IMG/VR virus record: IMGVR_UViG_3300008262_000025
Location: 25,558 to 89,557 of that record
Origin: a virus
DNA length: 64,000 nucleotides
Strand: one strand, 5' to 3'
Within the stretch, counting starts at the first letter, position 1. Each line of letters begins with the position of its first letter. The notes beneath the pieces were generated by a model, which was given only the letters and a program-made list of their open reading frames with translations, made no database searches and was not told where the DNA came from. Position numbers and translations under genes: made by a program. Of this stretch, positions 1 through 56,714 are shown one piece after another.

Positions 1-3000
1 TTCTCCACCTTCTCTATTTCCAGCAATGTTAATAGTTCCATGTGGTACTTTAGAAAGTAACTCTCTTAACTCTTCATCAGTATTAAAATCTTTTCCATAT
101 AAGAAGAAAGGTTTTCCATGTTTTTCTGCAAATTTTCTAGTAGATATTAAACCTGCTGAATCTTTAGCACCTTCTGAAAAATAAATAGTAACATCAGAAT
201 TAATTACATTTTGTTCTGTACGAGCATTATAATAACTAGATCCTTTTTTAGATTTAGGATTTTCAGCATCATATCTATTTTGCAATTCATCTGATATTGC
301 TACTACACCAAGTTCTTCAGCTAATTTTTTATTAGCGCCTTTACCTTTTTCATTACCAAAATCAGATGTAGTTGTACCACCTATTTCTAAACCTCCTATT
401 TCTTTAGCTAAAAGAAGACCAAGAGTATCAATACCAGTTTGTAAACCAGATATTACTTTATTAACACGAACTTTATACTTTTCTTTAATAGGTTTTTTTG
501 TTCTAGAATCTATTAATAAAGATGTTTTAAGTCTAATGTATTCTCTAAGTAATTCATTATTACGTGATAAAAAAACTAACATGTTATTATCAAATACTTC
601 ATCAGTAACTTTTTTATCATTAAGTTCATTTATAATTAAGTTAAATAAGTCAGAAGATACATCATCTTGAGTTATTAATTTATCACCTATTCTAAATCCT
701 TGTAATTGATCTGATTCACTCCATCTAAGTCTTCTAGTCTTATATTCTTTTTTAAGACTCCATTTACCTGTATCTTTATTTTTCTCATAATACTTTTCAG
801 GATTCTCATCAATAGATAATCTTGTAATTACATTATCATTTTGATCAACAATAACTTCATTACCATAATCAGATATTAATGATACTTTTCTACCTGGTAC
901 TACTTGTTGTAATACATTCTTAGAGAAATGTGCTAAAAATTGCTGTTCAAACTTTTCAGCAATAGCAGGAATATTAAAGTTATATTTACTTGATTTTCCA
1001 TCAACACTAAATTCTCTAAAGAAGTCAAGTAAGACTTCATCTGATCCACTATTTAATAGTACTTGTTTAATCTTCTTTTGAAAATTAACCATATCTCTTT
1101 GAAACTTACCATCTCCATCAAAGTAACCTAATACAGAAATAGCATGTTCAACAGAGTTTCTTACTCTATCTGTTAAAGCTTGACGATACTTTTTAACTAC
1201 ATCACTAATCTCATAAACTTCTCCTCTAATAGCAGCCAGTCTACTTTTATCTTGTTCATTATCAATGATCTGTAAAAGTTGTGACATAAATGTAATCTTA
1301 GTTTTACCAGAAGGAGTTTCTACTTGTAGTCTCCAAAATTCATTTTTACGTTTAGATGTATTATAAGAAAAATCATGATAGCCATTAACATCAGTAGCAA
1401 CAACAGGAGTAATAAGTTTAGATGCAGATTTAGGTAGTACTTCATCAATACTATTTAATTGCATATTTACTCTCATGTTATGTAATACTTTGTGATTATC
1501 TCTAGGTTCCCATAATGTTTCATATTCATCCCATAATCTTTTTACTTTATCTTTAACATCAGAATTATTTTTTCTAAATCCAACAGAAGCTTCTAATTCT
1601 TTAATCTTAGATTTAAGTTCATTAGCTTTAGCTTGATTTTCTTTTGGTAACCATGATGTTAGTTCTCTTATTAATATAGCATAAGAAAGTTTATGATATA
1701 TTTCTCCATCAAAATAAACACCCTTAACAGAATTAAATGTAGCATTTAAACTATCAAGTTTTTTTAATTCGTCCCAAGTTAGTTTTTCACCAAACCTAAT
1801 CTTATCAATTATAGGTTTAATGGAATCTCCTAGTTTACCATTTCTCTTTAAAATAAAAATAAATCTATCAGTACTCATATGAGCTTGACCATCATCTCTA
1901 TTTATCTTTTCTTTTTTACCTGTTACAATATCATATTCTTGTTCCTGTTCATCTCTATAAGCAACAGTAAATTCTCCTTGACCAGCATTAGGACCAAAAG
2001 CTAGAGAACCAGCATTACGCTTAACAGCATCTGTTTCGTTTTTACGGATACGAGGATCTTTATCAATTAGAAGATTATAAGATAATGAGTTAATAAAATC
2101 ATTAAAATAAAAATCACCAATAAAGTCTTCTACGTTCTTATATTTATTTTCATCAAATGGTACTAAAAGATTATCAATTTTACCATCAGTTGATTTACTA
2201 ATTATTTTATAACTAGATAATCTATTATGATAATTATTTAAATCTTTAGTAAACATTTCACGAATAGCATCCTTTATCTCTTTTTCTATTTGAGTAGGAC
2301 TATTTCTTTTAATTGTAGCTTCAAGTTTTGATTTTTTATTTAATTCATCTGGTGTTAAATCTTTTGTCTTTTCTAATAACATCATGTTTGCTAGTTCTTT
2401 ACGAGCTTTAACATAAGATTTTAAATTATTAGAATATTTCATAAGTTCTTTAAAATTCCATAAATCAAAACCTCTACCTACACCTTTAAGTGAGCCATCT
2501 TTATTTCTTTTTAAATTACCTTTACCATCAGTTTGTATATGAAAATCTTCATATAGAATAGGTCCAGTATAACCTTCAGATAGAATATTTTTTATTTCCT
2601 GTTTTCTTTTGATATCTTCACCTTGTTGATTTATAACATCAAAAGCTTCTTCAGTACTTAAATTTTCAGTATTATATTCTTTATTTTCTAATTTAGCTAA
2701 TTCTAATTGTAAGTTAAGTCTTTCTTCAGAATTATTTTGTCTGCTCATAAAATCTAATAAAGACTCTATACCTTCATTTAATTCATTCTCAACCCTATCA
2801 ATTAAACTTATCTCAGATAACAATAAATCAAATATTGTATCAACAGCAGAATCAGTCATACCACCATTTTCTAAATCAAAAAACTTATCGTTATTTCTTA
2901 CATTATTAACAGGTAATTGTATAGCTTCATCAGTTGATTTAGTTTCAAATATTTTAGGTATAAAATAAGAGGACTCAACTTCTGTAACTAGACCAGCTTC

Positions 3001-6000
3001 ATTTTTAATCTTTTTAACTTTTCTTTCTTTAAATAAAGTTAGTTGAAGAAGATTAAGAGATTTAAAGTCAATTGTTTTTGATGTAACACCTTTACCTTCT
3101 TTAGTAGTAGACCTACTAAAACCTTCAATAATTTTACCTTTTTCATCTCTAGGTTTAAGAGGCGTTTGTCTTAAATCACCTGTATTCTCAAATTTAAAAT
3201 CTTTAAAAATAGACTCAGTCATAGCTTGAGTACCAGAAAGTAAATAGTTATTTTTAACTGTTCCAGGATATTTAGCTGCTAATTTATCTCTTTTAGCTTT
3301 ATCTCTAAGTCTTCGTGTAGCAACACTCTGATAAGATTTTAATACGTGAGAGTATCTTTGATTTTGATTAGCATCTTGAAAACTTGATTCAGTAACAGTT
3401 TCATCAAATAAAGCATTAGCATTAGCTATCTTTTTAATAAAACCTAATACATCTTCTACTTTAGTTTCTGTTTTATTATTTTCATCTAGATATTCTCTAT
3501 CAGGAAATGGTATGTAAATATTACGATATTCATTAGGATTAATTTGAAACTTACTTGAATCTCTACCTTGTTCTCTTAATTTTTGAACTTTAAATTCATA
3601 ATAATTTTTAAGATCAGTAACTTGTTCGTCACTTTTAAACATTATTTTTTTAATCTGATCTAAACTATTTTTAGTTAAACCTTCTGCAATTTTATTTTCA
3701 TCTTGAGATTTAACTAATAATTCTTTAAAAGAAGTATAAAAGTTTTGATCTTTTTTTGGTATTAATACTTTAAATAAATCAACATTTTCATTGTAAAAAT
3801 TATCAAGAATACTAAAAATGATTAAACCTTCAGATAAAGTCATTCCTGTAAGTTTTTCAAAACTAGGTATATTTAATTCTGTATCTTTTTTCTGTACTTT
3901 AAATCCTTCATTAAACTTTGTAATTACATCTTTAAATATTTTTTTATATTCAACTGAATTACCATTTGCATTTTTAATTAAAATTAAAGAATCTTCAAAA
4001 ATTAAATCTTCTAAAGCTTTAAAATATCTGTCATACAACGCTCTTTGTTTAGGATCATTTAAAATATCACTTAATTTATTATTATCCCAATTTGCATACC
4101 AATCTTTTATCTGTACTTGATCTACATCTTCATTAAGAGCATTAATTACTATACTTTGTCTTGTATCTGAATCAATAAGTGTTTGTAAATAACTTAATTT
4201 TTCTTTATCAAAAGTAATTCTAAACAAATTAACTAATTGATGTTCGTTATCATATTCATCAGAATTATGTTTAGTAATTTCTTTAAGAGCTTGATAAACA
4301 GCTCTGGACATGTCATTTCCATATTCAACAAATTTTTCAAACTCATCCATAACATCAGTAAAGTCTTTTGATGCTAATGATTTTATCAAACCATTATATA
4401 CTACAGAACCATCTACAGATTTAAATATTTTTCTACCTGTATATTCATCTTCTACTTCATAAGTAACAAGACTCATAAATTCTCTTAGCTGATTAGGAAT
4501 CATATCAAATCCACCAATTTCAACATTAGTGATATCTAACATCTCTCTATTGTCAGCTTTATTCTCATCAAAGTAATCATCATCAAAAGGATTAAAATTA
4601 AATAACTTATATTTATCTTTTAATCCATCTAGTATTACATCAATGTTATGTTTATTTTCTTCATTATTAACATTGAATATTTCTTGTATTTTTATTAATT
4701 CATTATACTTTTTATCAGCAGCAGCATCACCTTTTTTCTCAGCTATAATATTTATTATTTCTGAATTCTCTTCACTATCAGGATTATAAAAATTAAACCT
4801 TTCTTCCATTACTTTATTAAAAACAGTAACTATATCAGGTTTAACATCAGATTGATCCTTACGTATTTCATGATAAACTAAAGCAGCAATATCACTAATT
4901 ATTTTGTCAGTCTCTTGCTCTTTTGCGTAAACAATGGAAAGTGCTCCATTTTTATCTAAACCTTGATTATCCAATATGATTAATTGGAATGCTGGAATTT
5001 GTCTCATTTGTCTAACGAATCTATTAGGTGTGATAGTTTTATTTTTAAACCTTTGATTGTTGATGTCATGAAATAAAGCGTCAACTTTACCTCTAACACC
5101 GATTAACTTAAGAAACGCGTTCATAAGTCTATTAAACAAATTAACAATTGATAAGTTACTAGTAGATGGTTTATTAGTTTTAGTAAAAGCTTGATATCTA
5201 TCAGCTAAATACTCTTCATAAACTAACTGTTCTAGTTCTTGTTTTGATAAAGATTCATAATTACTTACTGAATCTCTTAACTTATCAATCTTATCATTAA
5301 GCTGTTTTTCAGAAAGATTCATTTCTTTCCTAGCTTCATTAATATATAGATCTATTTCATTATCATTTAAGAACATTCTAAATACAGCATGAAATGCTTC
5401 ATGATATTCTGTACCTTGTTCTGCAGCTTTTTCATTTAGGTAAATTAGATTATTAAAAAATAAACCAAATGGAACACCAGATACTTTCATGTTATCCATA
5501 ACAGTTTCAATATCAGTAGATACTTCAACAGCATCTCCTAATATAGCTCTAATGTTTTCTTTTGCTTTATCTATTTTAATTCTAGATTCTTCAGGTGCAG
5601 CTTGTGGTTGTAAACTAAATGGTAACGCTTCATAATATGGATCAATTAATTTAATAAGAACATCTATTTCTCCATAAAAATCATTAATATCAAATTTAGT
5701 AATAAATTCTTCTAATGCTTCAGAATAAATATTACTATTTAATAATTGTAACATACCTAAGTATACATTAGTTTTATTACTACTTAATAATAAATCAGTT
5801 ACAGGTTTAATTAAATCATTATCAATTAAACCGTTAAGAATAGGATAAATTTTTTCTTTAAATCCATCTTTAGAAACAGAAAAATCACTTGATCTAATAT
5901 ATTGAAGTAAAGGAAGTAGTTTAGATCTTATTAAATTTTTATCTAAGTCATTAATAACAAGATTATATTCTTTATTTATTATAAAAGTAGTTGTTTTACC

Positions 6001-6624
6001 TTCTGTATTACGATAATTTCTTCTATTATAATTAATATTTTCAGGTAATTTATATAAATTATCAAGATTTTTTATTACTAATTCTTTAAAGTTATTATAT
6101 AAAGGTAAATTATCATTAATAAAAGATCGTAAATTTTTATCTTTTGTTACAGATGCAAGTTTATAAAAGAATTCATTAACAAAATAATCATCAATAAATG
6201 TATCTGGCGGACCATATAAGTTTAAATAAAGTTGACTTAAATCTTGTACATCTATTATATCATAACCTAAATTAATAAAATTATATTTTAGATTATCTAA
6301 ACTTTGTTGATAATCATCAGTAATATTAATCCATAATTTATTTAAAATTAATAATGATTCTTTATTATTAAGTTCTAAAAATTTATTAATTGTTTCTTCT
6401 AACATTGGAAAATCATCTGAATTAACTAAATTTTGTACCATACTCTCTGAATTATTAAAGTTTAAGTATAATTTAGCTGCTTCTTCTTTTAATATAATAG
6501 GATCATTAATTGTATCTGAAAAATGTTCTACATATTTATCAAAGACTTTTGATGGCCTACCGAATGGATCTAATACTTCTACTATTTCGTTAGTATTAGG
6601 ATCTCTTTTTATTTGACATATCAT
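1..6624 (-). CDS. Giant virion-associated RNA polymerase-type protein (crAss-like) with N-terminal zincin motif and an inserted SLOG-like domain; runs off the window edge
   Basis: ATG at 6624 (MICQIKRDPNTNE), read by hand as open for 2208 codons to base 1. HEAFH at 5389-5403 followed by EEYLAD; segments DAVKRNAG, DDGQAHMS and WRLQVETP resemble crAss-like RNAP subunits. The catalytic DxDxD motif is not inside the window. Confidence 0.75.
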   Translation of the reverse strand, partial: MICQIKRDPNTNEIVEVLDPFGRPSKVFDKYVEHFSDTINDPIILKEEAAKLYLNFNNSESMVQNLVNSDDFPMLEETINKFLELNNKESLLILNKLWINITDDYQQSLDNLKYNFINLGYDIIDVQDLSQLYLNLYGPPDTFIDDYFVNEFFYKLASVTKDKNLRSFINDNLPLYNNFKELVIKNLDNLYKLPENINYNRRNYRNTEGKTTTFIINKEYNLVINDLDKNLIRSKLLPLLQYIRSSDFSVSKDGFKEKIYPILNGLIDNDLIKPVTDLLLSSNKTNVYLGMLQLLNSNIYSEALEEFITKFDINDFYGEIDVLIKLIDPYYEALPFSLQPQAAPEESRIKIDKAKENIRAILGDAVEVSTDIETVMDNMKVSGVPFGLFFNNLIYLNEKAAEQGTEYHEAFHAVFRMFLNDNEIDLYINEARKEMNLSEKQLNDKIDKLRDSVSNYESLSKQELEQLVYEEYLADRYQAFTKTNKPSTSNLSIVNLFNRLMNAFLKLIGVRGKVDALFHDINNQRFKNKTITPNRFVRQMRQIPAFQLIILDNQGLDKNGALSIVYAKEQETDKIISDIAALVYHEIRKDQSDVKPDIVTVFNKVMEERFNFYNPDSEENSEIINIIAEKKGDAAADKKYNELIKIQEIFNVNNEENKHNIDVILDGLKDKYKLFNFNPFDDDYFDENKADNREMLDITNVEIGGFDMIPNQLREFMSLVTYEVEDEYTGRKIFKSVDGSVVYNGLIKSLASKDFTDVMDEFEKFVEYGNDMSRAVYQALKEITKHNSDEYDNEHQLVNLFRITFDKEKLSYLQTLIDSDTRQSIVINALNEDVDQVQIKDWYANWDNNKLSDILNDPKQRALYDRYFKALEDLIFEDSLILIKNANGNSVEYKKIFKDVITKFNEGFKVQKKDTELNIPSFEKLTGMTLSEGLIIFSILDNFYNENVDLFKVLIPKKDQNFYTSFKELLVKSQDENKIAEGLTKNSLDQIKKIMFKSDEQVTDLKNYYEFKVQKLREQGRDSSKFQINPNEYRNIYIPFPDREYLDENNKTETKVEDVLGFIKKIANANALFDETVTESSFQDANQNQRYSHVLKSYQSVATRRLRDKAKRDKLAAKYPGTVKNNYLLSGTQAMTESIFKDFKFENTGDLRQTPLKPRDEKGKIIEGFSRSTTKEGKGVTSKTIDFKSLNLLQLTLFKERKVKKIKNEAGLVTEVESSYFIPKIFETKSTDEAIQLPVNNVRNNDKFFDLENGGMTDSAVDTIFDLLLSEISLIDRVENELNEGIESLLDFMSRQNNSEERLNLQLELAKLENKEYNTENLSTEEAFDVINQQGEDIKRKQEIKNILSEGYTGPILYEDFHIQTDGKGNLKRNKDGSLKGVGRGFDLWNFKELMKYSNNLKSYVKARKELANMMLLEKTKDLTPDELNKKSKLEATIKRNSPTQIEKEIKDAIREMFTKDLNNYHNRLSSYKIISKSTDGKIDNLLVPFDENKYKNVEDFIGDFYFNDFINSLSYNLLIDKDPRIRKNETDAVKRNAGSLAFGPNAGQGEFTVAYRDEQEQEYDIVTGKKEKINRDDGQAHMSTDRFIFILKRNGKLGDSIKPIIDKIRFGEKLTWDELKKLDSLNATFNSVKGVYFDGEIYHKLSYAILIRELTSWLPKENQAKANELKSKIKELEASVGFRKNNSDVKDKVKRLWDEYETLWEPRDNHKVLHNMRVNMQLNSIDEVLPKSASKLITPVVATDVNGYHDFSYNTSKRKNEFWRLQVETPSGKTKITFMSQLLQIIDNEQDKSRLAAIRGEVYEISDVVKKYRQALTDRVRNSVEHAISVLGYFDGDGKFQRDMVNFQKKIKQVLLNSGSDEVLLDFFREFSVDGKSSKYNFNIPAIAEKFEQQFLAHFSKNVLQQVVPGRKVSLISDYGNEVIVDQNDNVITRLSIDENPEKYYEKNKDTGKWSLKKEYKTRRLRWSESDQLQGFRIGDKLITQDDVSSDLFNLIINELNDKKVTDEVFDNNMLVFLSRNNELLREYIRLKTSLLIDSRTKKPIKEKYKVRVNKVISGLQTGIDTLGLLLAKEIGGLEIGGTTTSDFGNEKGKGANKKLAEELGVVAISDELQNRYDAENPKSKKGSSYYNARTEQNVINSDVTIYFSEGAKDSAGLISTRKFAEKHGKPFFLYGKDFNTDEELRELLSKVPHGTINIAGNREGGE

Positions 6625-24900: not shown

Positions 24901-25758
24901 TTAATTTTTTAAAATATAATTACCATTATAATCATCAGAAAATTGACAAATGTTCTGAGAGTTTAATATTAAATTATATTCATTATAATTGGTATCATCA
25001 GTAAACAGTAATTGTGAATTAAAACTATTAATATCTTTATTTACAAATAAGTTAATAATATTAACCTTAGATTTTACATCTATATCAATATCAAAACCAT
25101 GTATAAACATTATACTATTAGAACCAATACAATCAATAACTAAAGGTAATAAAGAAAAAATTACTTTTATATTATAAGAACTATTAAAAATACTTTTACC
25201 ATTTATATAAATGTCATCACCAGTAGATCTTATATTGTCTTTATCTTGTATTAAATTAAAACTTAATAATAAATCTGTAACAACATTTACATATTCTACA
25301 TCTTGACTACATTTAGCTATGGATTCATCCATTAGTACATTTAACCAATTTTCTCTAGTTAAATCAATAACGATTAAACATTCAAAAAAAGTTCTGACTG
25401 GATCTGGTAAGAAAGGATTTAATTTAAAAGTATTATTCTGATAAATAATATTATTATTCTCATATAATTCTTCTAAGAATACTCCCTTTTTTGATATTTC
25501 TAAATAATAGTAATAATTTACTTCTTTATATACAAAATCTATTGAAACTGTAGTAATCTTATCATCTAATGTACTCTTAATGTAATCGTTTGAATTTGGA
25601 CTTGACAACATTAAAAAGAACATAAAGAAATCAGAGAATACTACTAGATCATTATCATATTTTTCACAAGTTATAAATAAAACATTAGTATTATCAAAAG
25701 TTAAATCTATCTTGTTAAAACCTGGATAATCTATTATTTTAATATTGCGAAAAAACAT
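24901..25758 (-). CDS. Degenerate ABC-ATPase (AAA_21/RloA-like), catalytic motifs lost
   Basis: MFFRNIKIIDYPGF start; MFIHGFDIDID and NSQLLFTDD at Walker B / H-loop positions; no Walker A. Confidence 0.55.
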   Translation of the reverse strand: MFFRNIKIIDYPGFNKIDLTFDNTNVLFITCEKYDNDLVVFSDFFMFFLMLSSPNSNDYIKSTLDDKITTVSIDFVYKEVNYYYYLEISKKGVFLEELYENNNIIYQNNTFKLNPFLPDPVRTFFECLIVIDLTRENWLNVLMDESIAKCSQDVEYVNVVTDLLLSFNLIQDKDNIRSTGDDIYINGKSIFNSSYNIKVIFSLLPLVIDCIGSNSIMFIHGFDIDIDVKSKVNIINLFVNKDINSFNSQLLFTDDTNYNEYNLILNSQNICQFSDDYNGNYILKN

Positions 25759-30865: not shown

Positions 30866-31678
30866 TTACATTGTTTTTAAAATTATATAATGATCTCCTT
30901 TCTTGTTTTTAAATTGAAGACCTTTACCTTTAATCCTTATTTTTTGATTATTTTTAATTTTATCAGGAAGTTTTACATCAACTTTCCCATCTACAGTTTC
31001 AACTCTCACTGTAGAGTTAGCATCAGTACTATATAATTTTAGTTCTGAGATTACTGCAGGTTGATCGTTTTCAACTTTTTCAATCCAAAACTCTTCTCCT
31101 TTTTTATAAATAGGTTTTATTATTAAATTACCCATTGGAAGATTTTTTATTAAATCTCCAAAAGTATAATAAACTAAATTACCATCTTCATTCATTACGT
31201 CTGCTGTAATATTAACCTCAATCATTACATCTTGATATAATACTCCAATATTACCACAATTAGAACATCCTTGGTTTTTACACTCTTCACAGGATATCCT
31301 TCTTGTATACATTACCATTGTTTTAAAAGTATCATTAATTTGTTGAACTGTCAGTTCCATATCTATTACAATATCAACTGAAGGTCTTCTTTTCATCCTT
31401 TTCTTTACGTTAAAAGTATTAATACTTTCTATAAATTCATCTGAATCGTAATAAGGACGTGGTGCATTTAAATACTTTACATACTCCTCTTGATGTTTTT
31501 TTATATAATCATGAGCAGAATTAATTTTTTTAAATGTCTCTTCATCTCCACCTTTCTTGTCTGGATGATGTTCAATTGCGAGTTGTTTAAAAGTAGATTT
31601 TAATTTTTCATCATTTAAAGAATCTACAAGACTTAGTTTAAGAATTTTACAAGATTCTTCATAGGTTTTAAGAAACAT
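30866..31678 (-). CDS. dnaJ: DnaJ-family co-chaperone
   Basis: J-domain HHPDK..F..IN.A, reduced Zn finger CEEC..CSNC, C-terminal KIRIKGKG..GD. Confidence 0.9.
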   Translation of the reverse strand: MFLKTYEESCKILKLSLVDSLNDEKLKSTFKQLAIEHHPDKKGGDEETFKKINSAHDYIKKHQEEYVKYLNAPRPYYDSDEFIESINTFNVKKRMKRRPSVDIVIDMELTVQQINDTFKTMVMYTRRISCEECKNQGCSNCGNIGVLYQDVMIEVNITADVMNEDGNLVYYTFGDLIKNLPMGNLIIKPIYKKGEEFWIEKVENDQPAVISELKLYSTDANSTVRVETVDGKVDVKLPDKIKNNQKIRIKGKGLQFKNKKGDHYIILKTM

Positions 31679-32066
31679 TTTTTTCTTTTTTAATTAATTT
31701 TATAATTATAGGATTCATTTCCAATCTAATAATAAAACCAACTATAGAAGCTATAGTGTTTGGAGTTTCTAAACTATCAGTAATTGGCATAAATCTATTT
31801 TCAAAACTTTCATAATAATTAGCTTTTTCACTTGTCGTAATATAACAATCAGGATCTACTTCAAACCTTCCTAAATTTGGAACAAATATCTCAGGATGAG
31901 TAGAATTCCAAAAAGAATTATTTTTTCGATAGTAATTATATACTCCTGATTTAGGAAATATTTCATTAGCAAACAATCTAATTAAACCTATAACATTATT
32001 ATAAGCATCTACTTTATAAGCAATACAATCTCTAATTATTTTTATATAACCGTGAGTATTATTCAT
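31668..32066 (-). CDS. hypothetical protein
   Basis: Track start 32108 lies inside a tRNA-like element, so ATG 32066 (MNNTHG) is preferred. Confidence 0.65.
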   Translation of the reverse strand: MNNTHGYIKIIRDCIAYKVDAYNNVIGLIRLFANEIFPKSGVYNYYRKNNSFWNSTHPEIFVPNLGRFEVDPDCYITTSEKANYYESFENRFMPITDSLETPNTIASIVGFIIRLEMNPIIIKLIKKEKNVS

Positions 32067-32080
32067 TATCTTATTGTTTT

Positions 32081-32127
32081 GAGCGATGGAGAGATTCGAA
32101 CTCTCCATACTCCCTATGAGTATCGCT
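32081..32127 (-). ncRNA. Mini-tRNA-like element (acceptor stem, one hairpin, T-arm)
   Basis: AGCGAT-ACTC ATAGG GAGT-AT-GGAGAG TTCGAAT CTCTCC-ATCGCT-C. Confidence 0.65.
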
Positions 32128-32971
32128 ATAGAAGATTACAGAGCTCCATAGCTCTAATTAATCTTGTAATTCCAACTCCAGCACCAACTCTTGGAAAGAA
32201 TTTGTTGCTAAGAAATTCATTTAATTCATTTATTACTCTTTCATATCCAAATAAGTCAAATAGCTTTTCAGCATATTTACCATCTTCAATATTAAAGAAT
32301 GTATCTCTCATTTGTTCAACATTACAAGAACGTTCAGCTGAACCAATAGTTTCTTGACCACAAAGAATAACATCTATTTTTTTAGAGTTACCGTTATTGT
32401 ATCTTTTCATATTCCAGAATGGATTAGTTCTTTCTGGGAAGTTCATTATAAATAAAGCATTTGAAATAGTTTCACCTAGCTCGTTTTCTAATTCAGAATT
32501 AATAATATCTACATCATAAGTTTGACATATATCTTCATAATTCATCATTTTATAATCATCAAATCCTAAGAAATCAAGTAATTCAGTTTCAACTAAATGA
32601 AGATCTGTCATATCACCTGGAAACTCAAATTCAAACATTGGAAAGATCATACAATGACGACCTTCTATTGGATTCTTTTCTGCTCTGTATGAGGTACTGA
32701 GACAATAAAAACCTGGTACTTCAGGATTGTTTAATAATTCGTGTTCAAGCCACATTTGACCAGTTTGAGGTAATGGCCATACCTTACCCGCATAATCGTA
32801 TGTACGAACATTAAACGGGTCTTCACAAGCTGCAAGAATAGATAATCTATTCTGAGTGTGTACTTCTAAAAATCCTTTTTCATCAAAGAATTGTCTTAAT
32901 TTTTTTACAACTTTTGTAAATTTATCAGCATCAATATGCGGATAAAAAGAAGAGTGTAATGAGTGCTTCAT
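32126..32971 (-). CDS. Class II aaRS catalytic-domain protein (AsnRS-like, no anticodon-binding domain)
   Basis: FFDEKGFLEV, LPQTGQMWLE, YRAE..GRH..FPMFEFE, ETIGSAER, GAGVGITRL; only 281 aa. Confidence 0.85.
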   Translation of the reverse strand: MKHSLHSSFYPHIDADKFTKVVKKLRQFFDEKGFLEVHTQNRLSILAACEDPFNVRTYDYAGKVWPLPQTGQMWLEHELLNNPEVPGFYCLSTSYRAEKNPIEGRHCMIFPMFEFEFPGDMTDLHLVETELLDFLGFDDYKMMNYEDICQTYDVDIINSELENELGETISNALFIMNFPERTNPFWNMKRYNNGNSKKIDVILCGQETIGSAERSCNVEQMRDTFFNIEDGKYAEKLFDLFGYERVINELNEFLSNKFFPRVGAGVGITRLIRAMELCNLL

Positions 32972-33029
32972 TCAAATAATTTTAATCATTAACAATTTTA
33001 AATCTCTTTAATTAATCTTTTCGATTATG

Positions 33030-33037
33030 CAAAGTTA
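33030..33037 (-). promoter_or_regulatory. Bacteroidota -7 promoter element
   Basis: TAACTTTG in the intergenic gap 58 nt upstream of the aaRS-like gene. Confidence 0.45.
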
Positions 33038-33053
33038 AGAAATTAATAAATAA

Positions 33054-33749
33054 TTATAGTAACAATTTATCAGTTTCCCAAGCTTTTAACGTGTGTTCGA
33101 AGGGGTTACCTTCTATTTCTGAAACTAATTTTAGCATCTCTTGTGCTATCTCTCTAATTTCAAGTTGAGCATGTTCTGAATTTCTAAGTTTAAGAAAGTT
33201 AGCAAAACTTCTCATATTAAACGATACATCAGATTGTATCTGAGAGTTATACGTTTTAAAATATCTTGCTGATTCTTTTGCTCTTTTTCTACCAAGTATA
33301 GGAGTTAATTGCTCAAGACATTGATGGTAAAGTTTATTACCTTGTTTTGTATATTTTTCCAAAATTAATTGCCAATCTTCACCTATCAAAGGATCTAATT
33401 CACTATCTCCAGCATTACTCCAATCTTGAGGAATATAAAACTTATCTTCTTTTAACTCTTTATATCTTGCACTTTCTGCATTAAGACTTGAGATTCTATG
33501 CTTTAATAAATGTATATGTGATGCAATATCACAATCAACAAGAAAATGAACTATACCTTTTTCAAAAGGTGTTTCATGTCCTTCTGACCAAAGCATATTT
33601 ATTAGTTTAGGAATTCTATCTTTTTTATCTTCTGTTAGTTCTCTTGATGTAGATGTCCAAGCTGAACATGCTATTATTTCATCAGAACCGTAATGTCCAA
33701 TTAATTCTACTTTATTTTTCATACTAAATAAATATTTTCTTTTTAACAA
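33054..33749 (-). CDS. thyX: Flavin-dependent thymidylate synthase
   Basis: GHETPFE, LLKHRISSLNAESARY, KESAR, NMRS..FL.LR..HAQLEIR. Confidence 0.93.
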   Translation of the reverse strand: MLKRKYLFSMKNKVELIGHYGSDEIIACSAWTSTSRELTEDKKDRIPKLINMLWSEGHETPFEKGIVHFLVDCDIASHIHLLKHRISSLNAESARYKELKEDKFYIPQDWSNAGDSELDPLIGEDWQLILEKYTKQGNKLYHQCLEQLTPILGRKRAKESARYFKTYNSQIQSDVSFNMRSFANFLKLRNSEHAQLEIREIAQEMLKLVSEIEGNPFEHTLKAWETDKLLL

Positions 33750-53687: not shown

Positions 53688-53691
53688 GTTG

Positions 53692-53764
53692 AGGGGAATC
53701 TCGGAATCGAACCGAAATAAAAGAATTATAAGTAACTAAATAAGTTACTACCTGACATTCCCCT
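53692..53764 (-). ncRNA. tRNA-like RNA: acceptor and T-arm kept, D/anticodon arms replaced
   Basis: AGGGGAAT/ATTCCCCT; AGTAACT TATTT AGTTACT-TATAA; TTCGG TTCGATT CCGAG. Confidence 0.7.
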
Positions 53765-54119: not shown

Positions 54120-54124
54120 GTTTG

Positions 54125-54240
54125 TGGCGAGGGAAGGAATCGAACCTCCGTTAAAAATAATCCTCAATTTATTTGAATTTATGAAGTTATTGTAACTAGC
54201 TTTAAGAAGAACTAGTTTAAGCCAACATTTCAACCTCGCC
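54125..54240 (-). ncRNA. tRNA-like RNA with internal TTACAA stem in place of the anticodon arm
   Basis: GGCGAGG/CCTCGCC-A; AACTAGTT..AGCTAGTT-ACAATAACTTCATAAA; GGAGG TTCGATT CCTTC. Confidence 0.75.
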
Positions 54241-56623: not shown

Positions 56624-56628
56624 TTTAG

Positions 56629-56714
56629 TAGTCAGGACAGGATTCGAACCTGTAACCGCAAAGGGTATGCTGTTCTATTGGGAAGCACGCGTCTACCAAT
56701 TCCGCCACCTGACT
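56629..56714 (-). ncRNA. Leu-type tRNA-like RNA with 12-nt anticodon loop
   Basis: AGTCAGG/CCTGACT; GCGGAATTGGTAGACGC; GTGCT TCCCAATAGAAC AGCAT; variable arm; ACAGG TTCGAAT CCTGT. Confidence 0.75.

Follow-up and report, generated by a model that had tools for sequence, protein, structure and literature searches.

A stand-alone class IIb synthetase-like gene and an overlapping 47-nucleotide tRNA-like element in a viral genome

In a 64,000-nucleotide (nt) stretch of viral DNA (IMG/VR record IMGVR_UViG_3300008262_000025, positions 25,558 to 89,557; here called the window), a gene for a protein that resembles an aminoacyl-tRNA synthetase (aaRS) is overlapped at its stop codon by a 47-nt element that can fold like the acceptor and T-arm half of a tRNA. 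The window, which is AT-rich, comes from a virus contig of 89.6 kb, and its minus strand holds 76 of its 77 open reading frames (ORFs) of at least 80 amino acids (aa). DNA near-identical to it occurs in sequencing runs from 15 studies, labelled lake water, freshwater, riverine metagenome, and other labels; in the RNA runs compared, 0.10 or less of the sampled words was present. The gene and the parts of the element lie as follows.

32126..32971, minus strand: class IIb aaRS-like stand-alone catalytic core, 281 aa (phrog_29758, or T4-GC194 "tRNA ligase"), recognized by its ORF, its Pfam and PHROG matches, and its fold
32126-32128, minus strand: TAG stop codon of the synthetase-like gene
32081..32127, minus strand: tRNA-like minihelix of 47 nt, made up of an acceptor-like stem, a side hairpin, and a T-arm-like hairpin, with C32081 at the discriminator position
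32108..32122, minus strand: side hairpin UACUC AUAGG GAGUA, abutting the 5' side of the T stem, at the site of the long variable arm in a type II tRNA
32087..32107, minus strand: T-arm-like hairpin, U GGAGAG (loop UUCGAAU) CUCUCC A, pair probability of ~1.0
32082..32086, minus strand: 3' strand of the acceptor-like stem, UCGCU, which pairs with AGCGA at 32123-32127 and so takes in the A and G of the stop codon

The synthetase-like protein and the 47-nt element

The encoded protein matches the Pfam profile for the class II D/K/N core (PF00152; E = 3.6e-17), with residues 19 to 274 aligned to positions 26 to 291 of the 308-position profile. Because this alignment begins within the core, at profile position 26, and only an 82-nt spacer separates the gene from thyX upstream, no OB-fold or other anticodon-binding domain is encoded. 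This agrees with a first-pass annotation of the same DNA, made from the letters alone, which had described a 281-aa class IIb catalytic core lacking an OB-fold. An AlphaFold (AF2) model built from 62 homologues has a predicted local distance difference test (pLDDT) score of 90.7, and its best Foldseek matches are the catalytic domains of asparaginyl-, aspartyl-, and lysyl-tRNA synthetases (AsnRS, AspRS, and LysRS; E ~1e-17, ~20% identity). The AsnRS/AspRS catalytic domains in PDB entries 9SH8, 1X54, 2XGT, and 3NEL share the fold and motifs of the window enzyme, with query-normalised template modeling (TM) scores of 0.71 to 0.75. By sequence, the best matches in the PDB were to AsnRS (E ~1e-7) and next to AspRS. 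Four motif 2 residues (R96, E98, R105, and H106) and one of motif 3 (R270), which are ATP binding, are invariant across the 62 sequences. The PF00152 match, these invariant residues, and the fold match together identify a class IIb catalytic core with motifs 1 to 3. At the aligned site of the glutamate in the AsnRS LYLE motif, which is a lysine in AspRS, the window enzyme carries the AsnRS-type glutamate.

Unlike AsnRS and AspRS, however, the window enzyme has no anticodon-binding domain and falls far under the NCBIfam cut-offs. Assignment as a canonical AsnRS was rejected at 34.1 bits for TIGR00457 (cut-off, 342.6) and 37.1 bits for NF003037 (cut-off, 414). The archaeal AsnRS2/AS-AR asparagine synthetase A and Escherichia coli EpmA (GenX/PoxA) are stand-alone class II cores that consume ATP but charge no tRNA. 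The window enzyme is likewise a stand-alone class II core, but by profile it belongs to neither group: it scored 11.7 bits for the archaeal-type asparagine synthetase A profile NF005052 (cut-off, 368), and for EpmA/GenX 20.7 bits with TIGR00462 (cut-off, 286.9) and 21.9 bits with NF006828 (cut-off, 264). A full-length match was obtained to phrog_29758 (E = 3.3e-104; residues 13 to 276 on positions 5 to 266 of 267), a family with no assigned function. Judged from its sequence, the enzyme is an intact, presumably ATP-using class IIb synthetase-like protein of a large family.

The element begins at the A of the gene's TAG stop and reads, on the minus strand from 32127 to 32081, AGCGAU ACUCAUAGGGAGU AU GGAGAG UUCGAAU CUCUCC AUCGCU C. 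When an isolated 53-nt RNA was folded with RNAfold, the minimum free energy structure was a three-way junction (-17.7 kcal/mol). The first-pass annotation had described a 47-nt RNA overlapping the TAG, with a T arm closed by a TTCGAAT loop and a side hairpin, and this architecture was recovered. Its 12 stacked pairs were also recovered, with no linker bases between the stems, but they divide as 5 + 7 and not as the 6 + 6 that had been drawn. Within a 61-nt frame, the best structure is instead an extended hairpin, by a margin of 0.5 kcal/mol (-18.2 kcal/mol; z = -2.9). The T-like hairpin kept a pair probability of ~1.0 in all contexts tried, from 53 to 311 nt, and the acceptor and side stems, at 0.8 to 0.9 when folded alone, dropped to between 0.05 and 0.4 in longer contexts. 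When the window's 7 real tRNAs were put through the same test, 4 of them dropped to 0.12 or less. Since real tRNAs also fail, the context-folding test does not discriminate.

The arrangement of the element exceeds chance expectation. Across the 89.6-kb contig, five sites (four tRNAs and the element) combine a TTCGANN loop, a stem of 5 bp or more, and a 12-bp acceptor closure, compared to a mean of 0.13 in shuffled sequences. The element thus has a T arm with a G-UUCRANY-C loop stacked on an acceptor stem, 12 bp in total, and lacks the D and anticodon arms of a cloverleaf. Neither ARAGORN at default settings nor the Rfam tRNA model RF00005 (E values up to 10) called it, and ARAGORN forced to an 80% threshold returned an implausible 75-nt tRNA with an 8-nt anticodon loop. 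On the plus strand, the region matches RF04351, a model of two adjacent hairpins (E = 0.049). In the best local alignment against 39 tRNA sequences, the side hairpin and T arm fell onto the variable arm and T arm of one partner tRNA described below (L083). That alignment scored 29, compared to at most 28 in 200 shuffles, with an independent part of only ~6 nt. The alignment and the RF04351 match would both fit a type II tRNA minus its D and anticodon arms. The element is not an intrinsic terminator, because the sequence that follows it, CAAAACAAUAAG, has no U run; a terminator scan of the minus strand likewise found none here.

The enzyme family and the partner tRNA of marine phages

To compare loci, we took 80 homologous loci each from IMG/VR, metagenomes, and genomes, the last kept from 412 homologue matches, and defined the window clade as loci with an enzyme at least 64% identical to that of the window (n = 47). 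The family is strongly conserved and has at least 8,000 relatives, with homologues of 55 to 60% identity in Bacteroidota, in bacteria of the candidate phyla radiation (CPR), in DPANN archaea, and in other genomes. The closest relatives of the window enzyme are 77 to 87% identical to it (P0002-P0006). A search of GenBank phage proteins gave 9 records, all below 60% identity, from P-SSM2, P-SSM5, P-SSM7, and three huge uncultured phages, and a search of the ESM Atlas found the same family again and nothing beyond it. The cyanophage T4-GC194 "tRNA ligase" (P-SSM2 PSSM2_198, P-SSM5 PRTG_00244, and P-SSM7 PSSM7_129/130) belongs to the same family, and the P-SSM2 and P-SSM7 proteins are 57% identical to the window enzyme at ~94% coverage. 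Our literature search, which covered papers outside their supplements, found none on the function of the enzyme or on the odd tRNA that accompanies it: in the part of Sullivan et al. 2010 (PMC3037559) that we consulted, the T4-GC194 "tRNA ligase" is a mere table row, and the consulted part of a jumbo-phage review (PMC7824862) contains no treatment of it.

That tRNA is annotated in P-SSM7 and P-SSM5 as an 85- to 86-nt tRNA-Asn, 8 to 9 nt after the gene annotated as "tRNA ligase"; in P-SSM2, ARAGORN found the same tRNA. It lies 3' of the gene at 40/80 IMG/VR loci, 52/80 metagenome loci, and 2/80 genome loci. We built a covariance model (R1) on 27 distinct copies and, independently of it, ran an nhmmer census of 246 loci, in which 97 had the tRNA, 144 lacked it, and 5 were cut. 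The partner tRNA is 84 to 106 nt long with a Leu-like D arm and a long variable arm, and its stems covary. T1, A72, G73, and the GTT anticodon are invariant in the 27 distinct copies, 25 of which encode CCA, and partner tRNAs score 76 to 97 bits with the model. In the marine loci (L040-L085, L107-L168, and L001-L003), this captive tRNA combines a Leu-like body with the Asn identity marks U1-A72, G73, and GUU; position 37 is mostly a pyrimidine, and the variable arm ranges from short to ~35 nt.

The window element resembles the cyanophage arrangement in that an RNA with a tRNA-type T arm begins within a few bases of the stop codon. The two RNAs otherwise differ: that of the cyanophages is a full tRNA, whereas that of the window is 47 nt long, has no D or anticodon arm, and has A1-U72 and C73 in place of the invariant U1-A72 and G73, with no GUU. 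No full partner tRNA lies within ~120 nt 3' of the window gene. Model R1 matched the element only locally, at 32089-32105 on T-arm positions 61 to 77 (9.1 bits; E = 3.6). The partner tRNA is also missing from all 45 window-clade loci with sufficient 3' sequence. As judged from this distribution, most lineages of the enzyme family, this freshwater phage clade among them, appear to manage with no tRNA dedicated to the enzyme.

We then asked whether the minihelix itself recurs downstream of homologous genes, a check that the first-pass annotation had suggested. A search of the 150 nt 3' of the gene found no T-arm-like hairpin at any tRNA-less locus (0/46 in the window clade and 0/98 elsewhere; 0/144). 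At all tRNA-less loci, the outcome is thus the first of the two that the first-pass annotation had named as counting against its proposal. Terminator-like hairpins were found 3' of the gene at 27/46 and 60/98 of these loci, respectively. The exact T-arm 19-mer has 3 matches in IMG/VR, all in unrelated coding contexts. One 68-kb contig from another study spans 31600-33100 and differs from the window at 31 of 1,501 nt (~2%) with no gaps. It has 1 change within the 47 nt, at 32121, which turns an A-U pair into G.U and so keeps it; this matches the average rate for that contig. The element is therefore stable at the strain level and evolves at the average rate.

In a maximum-likelihood tree of 141 non-redundant proteins, whose root position is unknown, the tRNA-bearing phages form one clade with a Shimodaira-Hasegawa-like approximate likelihood ratio test (SH-aLRT) support of 97. 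This clade groups weakly (83 to 87) with Bacteroidota and CPR sequences, and the window clade (20 sequences; SH-aLRT 99) falls outside the group of tRNA-bearing phages and cellular sequences. On this tree, cellular tRNA-less lineages thus separate the two phage clades, so simple vertical descent from the marine partner tRNA is not the most parsimonious account of the window element.

The neighborhood of the gene bears on the role of the enzyme. PyrD, PyrF, or phosphoribosyltransferase (PRTase) homologues (pyrD, pyrF, or pyrE-type) lie within 3 kb of the gene at 21/80 genome loci from several phyla, and at 0/165 phage and metagenome loci, whose flanks were shorter. Among five carrier genomes, whose completeness is unstated, none had an aspartate carbamoyltransferase (ATCase) over the cut-off, compared to 14/14 controls. 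CarB was over the cut-off in 3/5 of these genomes, AsnB in 4/5, and AsnRS in 2/5; pyrC_multi was over the cut-off in 0/5, with 3 near it. With AsnB already present in four carrier genomes, a role as an asparagine synthetase seems less needed. Together with the NF005052 score given above, this leaves unsupported the plain asparagine synthetase that the first-pass annotation had named as the alternative to an enzyme/mini-tRNA pair. From the gene neighborhood and the ATCase absence in the five genomes, we infer that the enzyme may be a tRNA-independent Asp/Asn-type adenylate-forming ligase for pyrimidine precursor supply. In the window, the gene belongs to a module for replication and nucleotide metabolism, together with thyX and genes for dUTPase, primase, helicases, and a clamp loader, and its place beside thyX in such a module fits a pyrimidine-precursor role. 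A fixed thyX linkage was ruled out, as thyX adjoins the enzyme gene at only 4/47 clade loci besides the window. The window holds no pyr genes, integrase, or CCA-adding enzyme.

Large and strongly conserved, the family links phages, Bacteroidota, CPR bacteria, and DPANN archaea, and it appears tied to pyrimidine synthesis in cells and to a strange tRNA in ocean phages. The window represents a third state, in which the same gene is followed by only the acceptor/T-arm half of a tRNA.

Origin and possible uses of the element

We propose that the enzyme acts as a tRNA-independent ligase and that the 47-nt element is a lineage-specific tRNA-derived fragment. The element would most likely be a decayed tRNA gene, in a genome with several broken or odd tRNA pieces (described below), and we infer that it arose when a type II tRNA was stripped of its D and anticodon arms by deletion. 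Its charging by the enzyme seems unlikely; if it has a function, the element may mark or stabilize an RNA end between two genes. We put at about even the chance that the element is such tRNA-derived debris, with no function demonstrated. If so, it documents the decay of phage tRNA genes.

Several observations weigh against this interpretation. For debris, the T-loop consensus and the perfect 12-bp stack are in unusually good condition, and the sole change in the variant contig keeps its pair. The element also occupies the very site at which the marine clade has its tRNA; were the two unrelated, this would be a striking coincidence. The nodes that part the two phage clades have only moderate support (83 to 87) in a tree of unknown root, and with such soft deep nodes the element may still descend from a tRNA that was linked to the enzyme long ago, or be a working miniature. 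The closest relatives, P0002-P0006, were absent from the IMG/VR and metagenome scans, where the best identity was 76%, and their 3' flanks lie outside the comparison. Finally, the pyrimidine role is based on gene neighborhood and on the lack of ATCase in five genomes of unstated completeness.

The element could instead have no tRNA ancestry and be a chance palindrome around TTCGAA, which is itself palindromic; if anything, it would then be a translational-coupling hairpin that hides the AUG at 32106-32108 of the next ORF. That AUG forms the first three bases of an 8-bp stem, 18 nt past the stop, but the start of the downstream ORF is unproven and an alternative AUG lies at 32064-32066. The stability of the hairpin alone in longer contexts and the recurrence of the exact 19-mer in unrelated coding contexts are consistent with a chance origin. 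The full pattern, however, is expected just 0.13 times per genome and is found at none of the 144 homologous loci, and the G53/C61-type flanks and the adjoining variable-arm-like hairpin fit a tRNA. We consider this origin unlikely.

Another reading, close to the processing signal that the first-pass annotation had offered as its second option, is that the element was co-opted as RNA punctuation. Cutting by host RNase P or RNase Z, or protection of a 3' end, would then set the mRNA of the enzyme apart from the genes that follow. The hairpin of the T arm has high stability, and an acceptor/T-arm helix is a minimal RNase P substrate. Further, the element takes the place at which 27/46 clade relatives have a terminator, and it is not one itself. 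A cut on its 5' side, however, would take away the stop codon, and conservation is confined to the strain level. These points leave punctuation quite unlikely.

As its first option, the first-pass annotation had proposed a dedicated enzyme/mini-tRNA pair. In the marine clade, enzymes of this type are indeed accompanied by a tRNA of their own, a full-size one, which makes such a reading thinkable here; for the window mini-tRNA, it has no comparative support. Thus, the earlier observation is confirmed, and its interpretation is partly supported. As a functional pair, the minihelix would be cut out of the message (by RNase P at its 5' end, trimming, and CCA addition at C32081) and would serve as the minimal acceptor substrate or cofactor of an anticodon-blind enzyme. 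Acceptor-TΨC minihelices are substrates of synthetases, RNase P, and the CCA-adding enzyme, and mascRNA-type tRNA-like 3' elements exist. The window element shares with such minihelices a 12-bp helix in which acceptor and T arm stack coaxially, as well as a T loop and an unpaired 3' side; the known ones, however, are laboratory constructs or eukaryotic nuclear RNAs, whereas that of the window is known from its sequence and predicted fold.

An acceptor/T-arm helix is all that an enzyme lacking an anticodon-binding domain could read, and here the T loop and 12 stackable pairs are intact at the same site that holds the partner tRNA in 97 loci. The missing CCA is no obstacle, as none of the 8 tRNA-type matches aligned in the window encodes one and its absence is normal for this phage, and the single substitution in the variant contig preserves pairing. 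These points have to be set against the absence of the minihelix from all 46 loci of the enzyme's own clade, the replacement of the invariant U1-A72 and G73 of the partner by A-U and C, and a partner model that aligns to the T arm alone. In addition, the 5' strand of the element uses two stop-codon bases, such that its excision would leave an mRNA without a stop, and the cellular relatives of the enzyme do without a dedicated tRNA. We regard a functional pair as very unlikely. If the element is used, the enzyme would need only the top half of a tRNA, which sharpens the question of what job the full captive tRNA performs in marine phages. The fullest form of the idea, a natural minihelix system in which an anticodon-blind enzyme has a dedicated acyl carrier in the 47-nt acceptor/T-arm RNA, in miniature of the marine tRNA(GUU), is in our estimate a long shot. 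If true, it would be a living case in which aminoacylation, or metabolism assisted by a tRNA, depends on reading the "operational" half of the tRNA and no more.

The last candidate, an attP remnant of the kind found in temperate phages, in which the 3' half of a tRNA gene of the host is copied, has in its favor that tRNA-targeting attP sites carry a T arm and 3' acceptor strand, but we judge it extremely improbable: the Pfam scan of 76 window ORFs found no integrase, the complementary 5' acceptor strand is present too, although an attP site could do without it, and a 25-mer query had no match in 401 Bacteroidota genomes when up to 2 mismatches were allowed, a weak test as the host phylum is unknown.

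Flanks of the gene and other tRNA material in the window

Around the gene and the element lie the following features.

33054..33749, minus strand: thyX (flavin-dependent thymidylate synthase; PF02511, E = 1.1e-35), directly upstream and co-oriented
33030..33037, minus strand: TAACTTTG, a proposed promoter element, present
32114..32116, minus strand: second in-frame TAG, four codons past the stop
31668..32108, minus strand: downstream ORF, 146 aa from the ATG at 32106-32108 (in the T stem), or alternatively 132 aa from the ATG at 32064-32066

The promoter element that the first-pass annotation had placed before the gene is indeed there. Its motif class, TANNTTTG, is not enriched in the window (100 observed compared to 113 expected), and sigma-70-like sites in 31500-33300 are also at chance level (8 compared to 11.1 expected). 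As both motifs occur at chance frequency, we rejected the claim of a promoter. Within the 82-nt spacer upstream of the gene, we found no terminator and nothing else but an upstream ORF of five codons (MIKII; 32972-32989, minus strand), whose TGA abuts the gene's ATG. Past the second TAG, the frame stays open to a TAA at 32066-32068, which overlaps the ATG at 32064-32066 (TAATG), for a read-through length of 19 codons. The downstream ORF has no relatives in IMG/VR, Pfam, NCBIfam, or PHROGs, and its true start therefore could not be fixed.

The window encodes an amber-suppressor-type tRNA with a CTA anticodon (47357-47425, minus strand; Rfam tRNA, 51.9 bits). The phage that carries this tRNA(CTA) uses TAG as an ordinary stop in 15/76 ORFs, the synthetase-like gene among them. 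Genome-wide recoding of TAG by the phage tRNA(CUA) was rejected on that count and because a large ORF (1-6624, minus strand), which encodes at least 2,208 aa and runs off the window end, is open under translation table 11.

Irregular tRNA pieces are found at several other places in the window, and tRNA decay therefore seems common in this phage genome. Isolated T arms lie at 47479-47497 and 47302-47318. The former is preceded by a 9-mer, AUACUCAUA, that it shares with the element; this lone T arm (minus strand) is followed by an intrinsic terminator. At 47245-47345 (minus strand), a T arm and 3' acceptor strand (ATTAGAT) come first; 2 nt further on lies the 5' acceptor strand that matches them, and then a D arm and the beginning of an anticodon stem. 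This swapped order of tRNA halves suggests that the tRNA was rearranged or permuted.

Two paralogous Leu-like type II tRNA-like genes (56626-56714 and 56998-57123, both minus strand) have a common 5' acceptor strand and D arm and are separated by an 85-aa ORF. The first, of 87 nt, has a 12-nt anticodon loop and is called Trp-CCA by ARAGORN; the second, of 126 nt, has an anticodon loop enlarged by a 48-nt insert, and its 3' acceptor strand pairs poorly. Matches to a type II tRNA model at 53689-53763 (E = 0.003) and 54122-54240 (E = 0.00025; with large insertions), both on the minus strand, were missed by ARAGORN and by the Rfam gathering thresholds. Beside the tRNA(CTA) and the T-arm fragments lies a gene for an RNase T/Rv2179c-like 3'-5' exoribonuclease (47534-48067, minus strand; PF16473, E = 4.6e-55).

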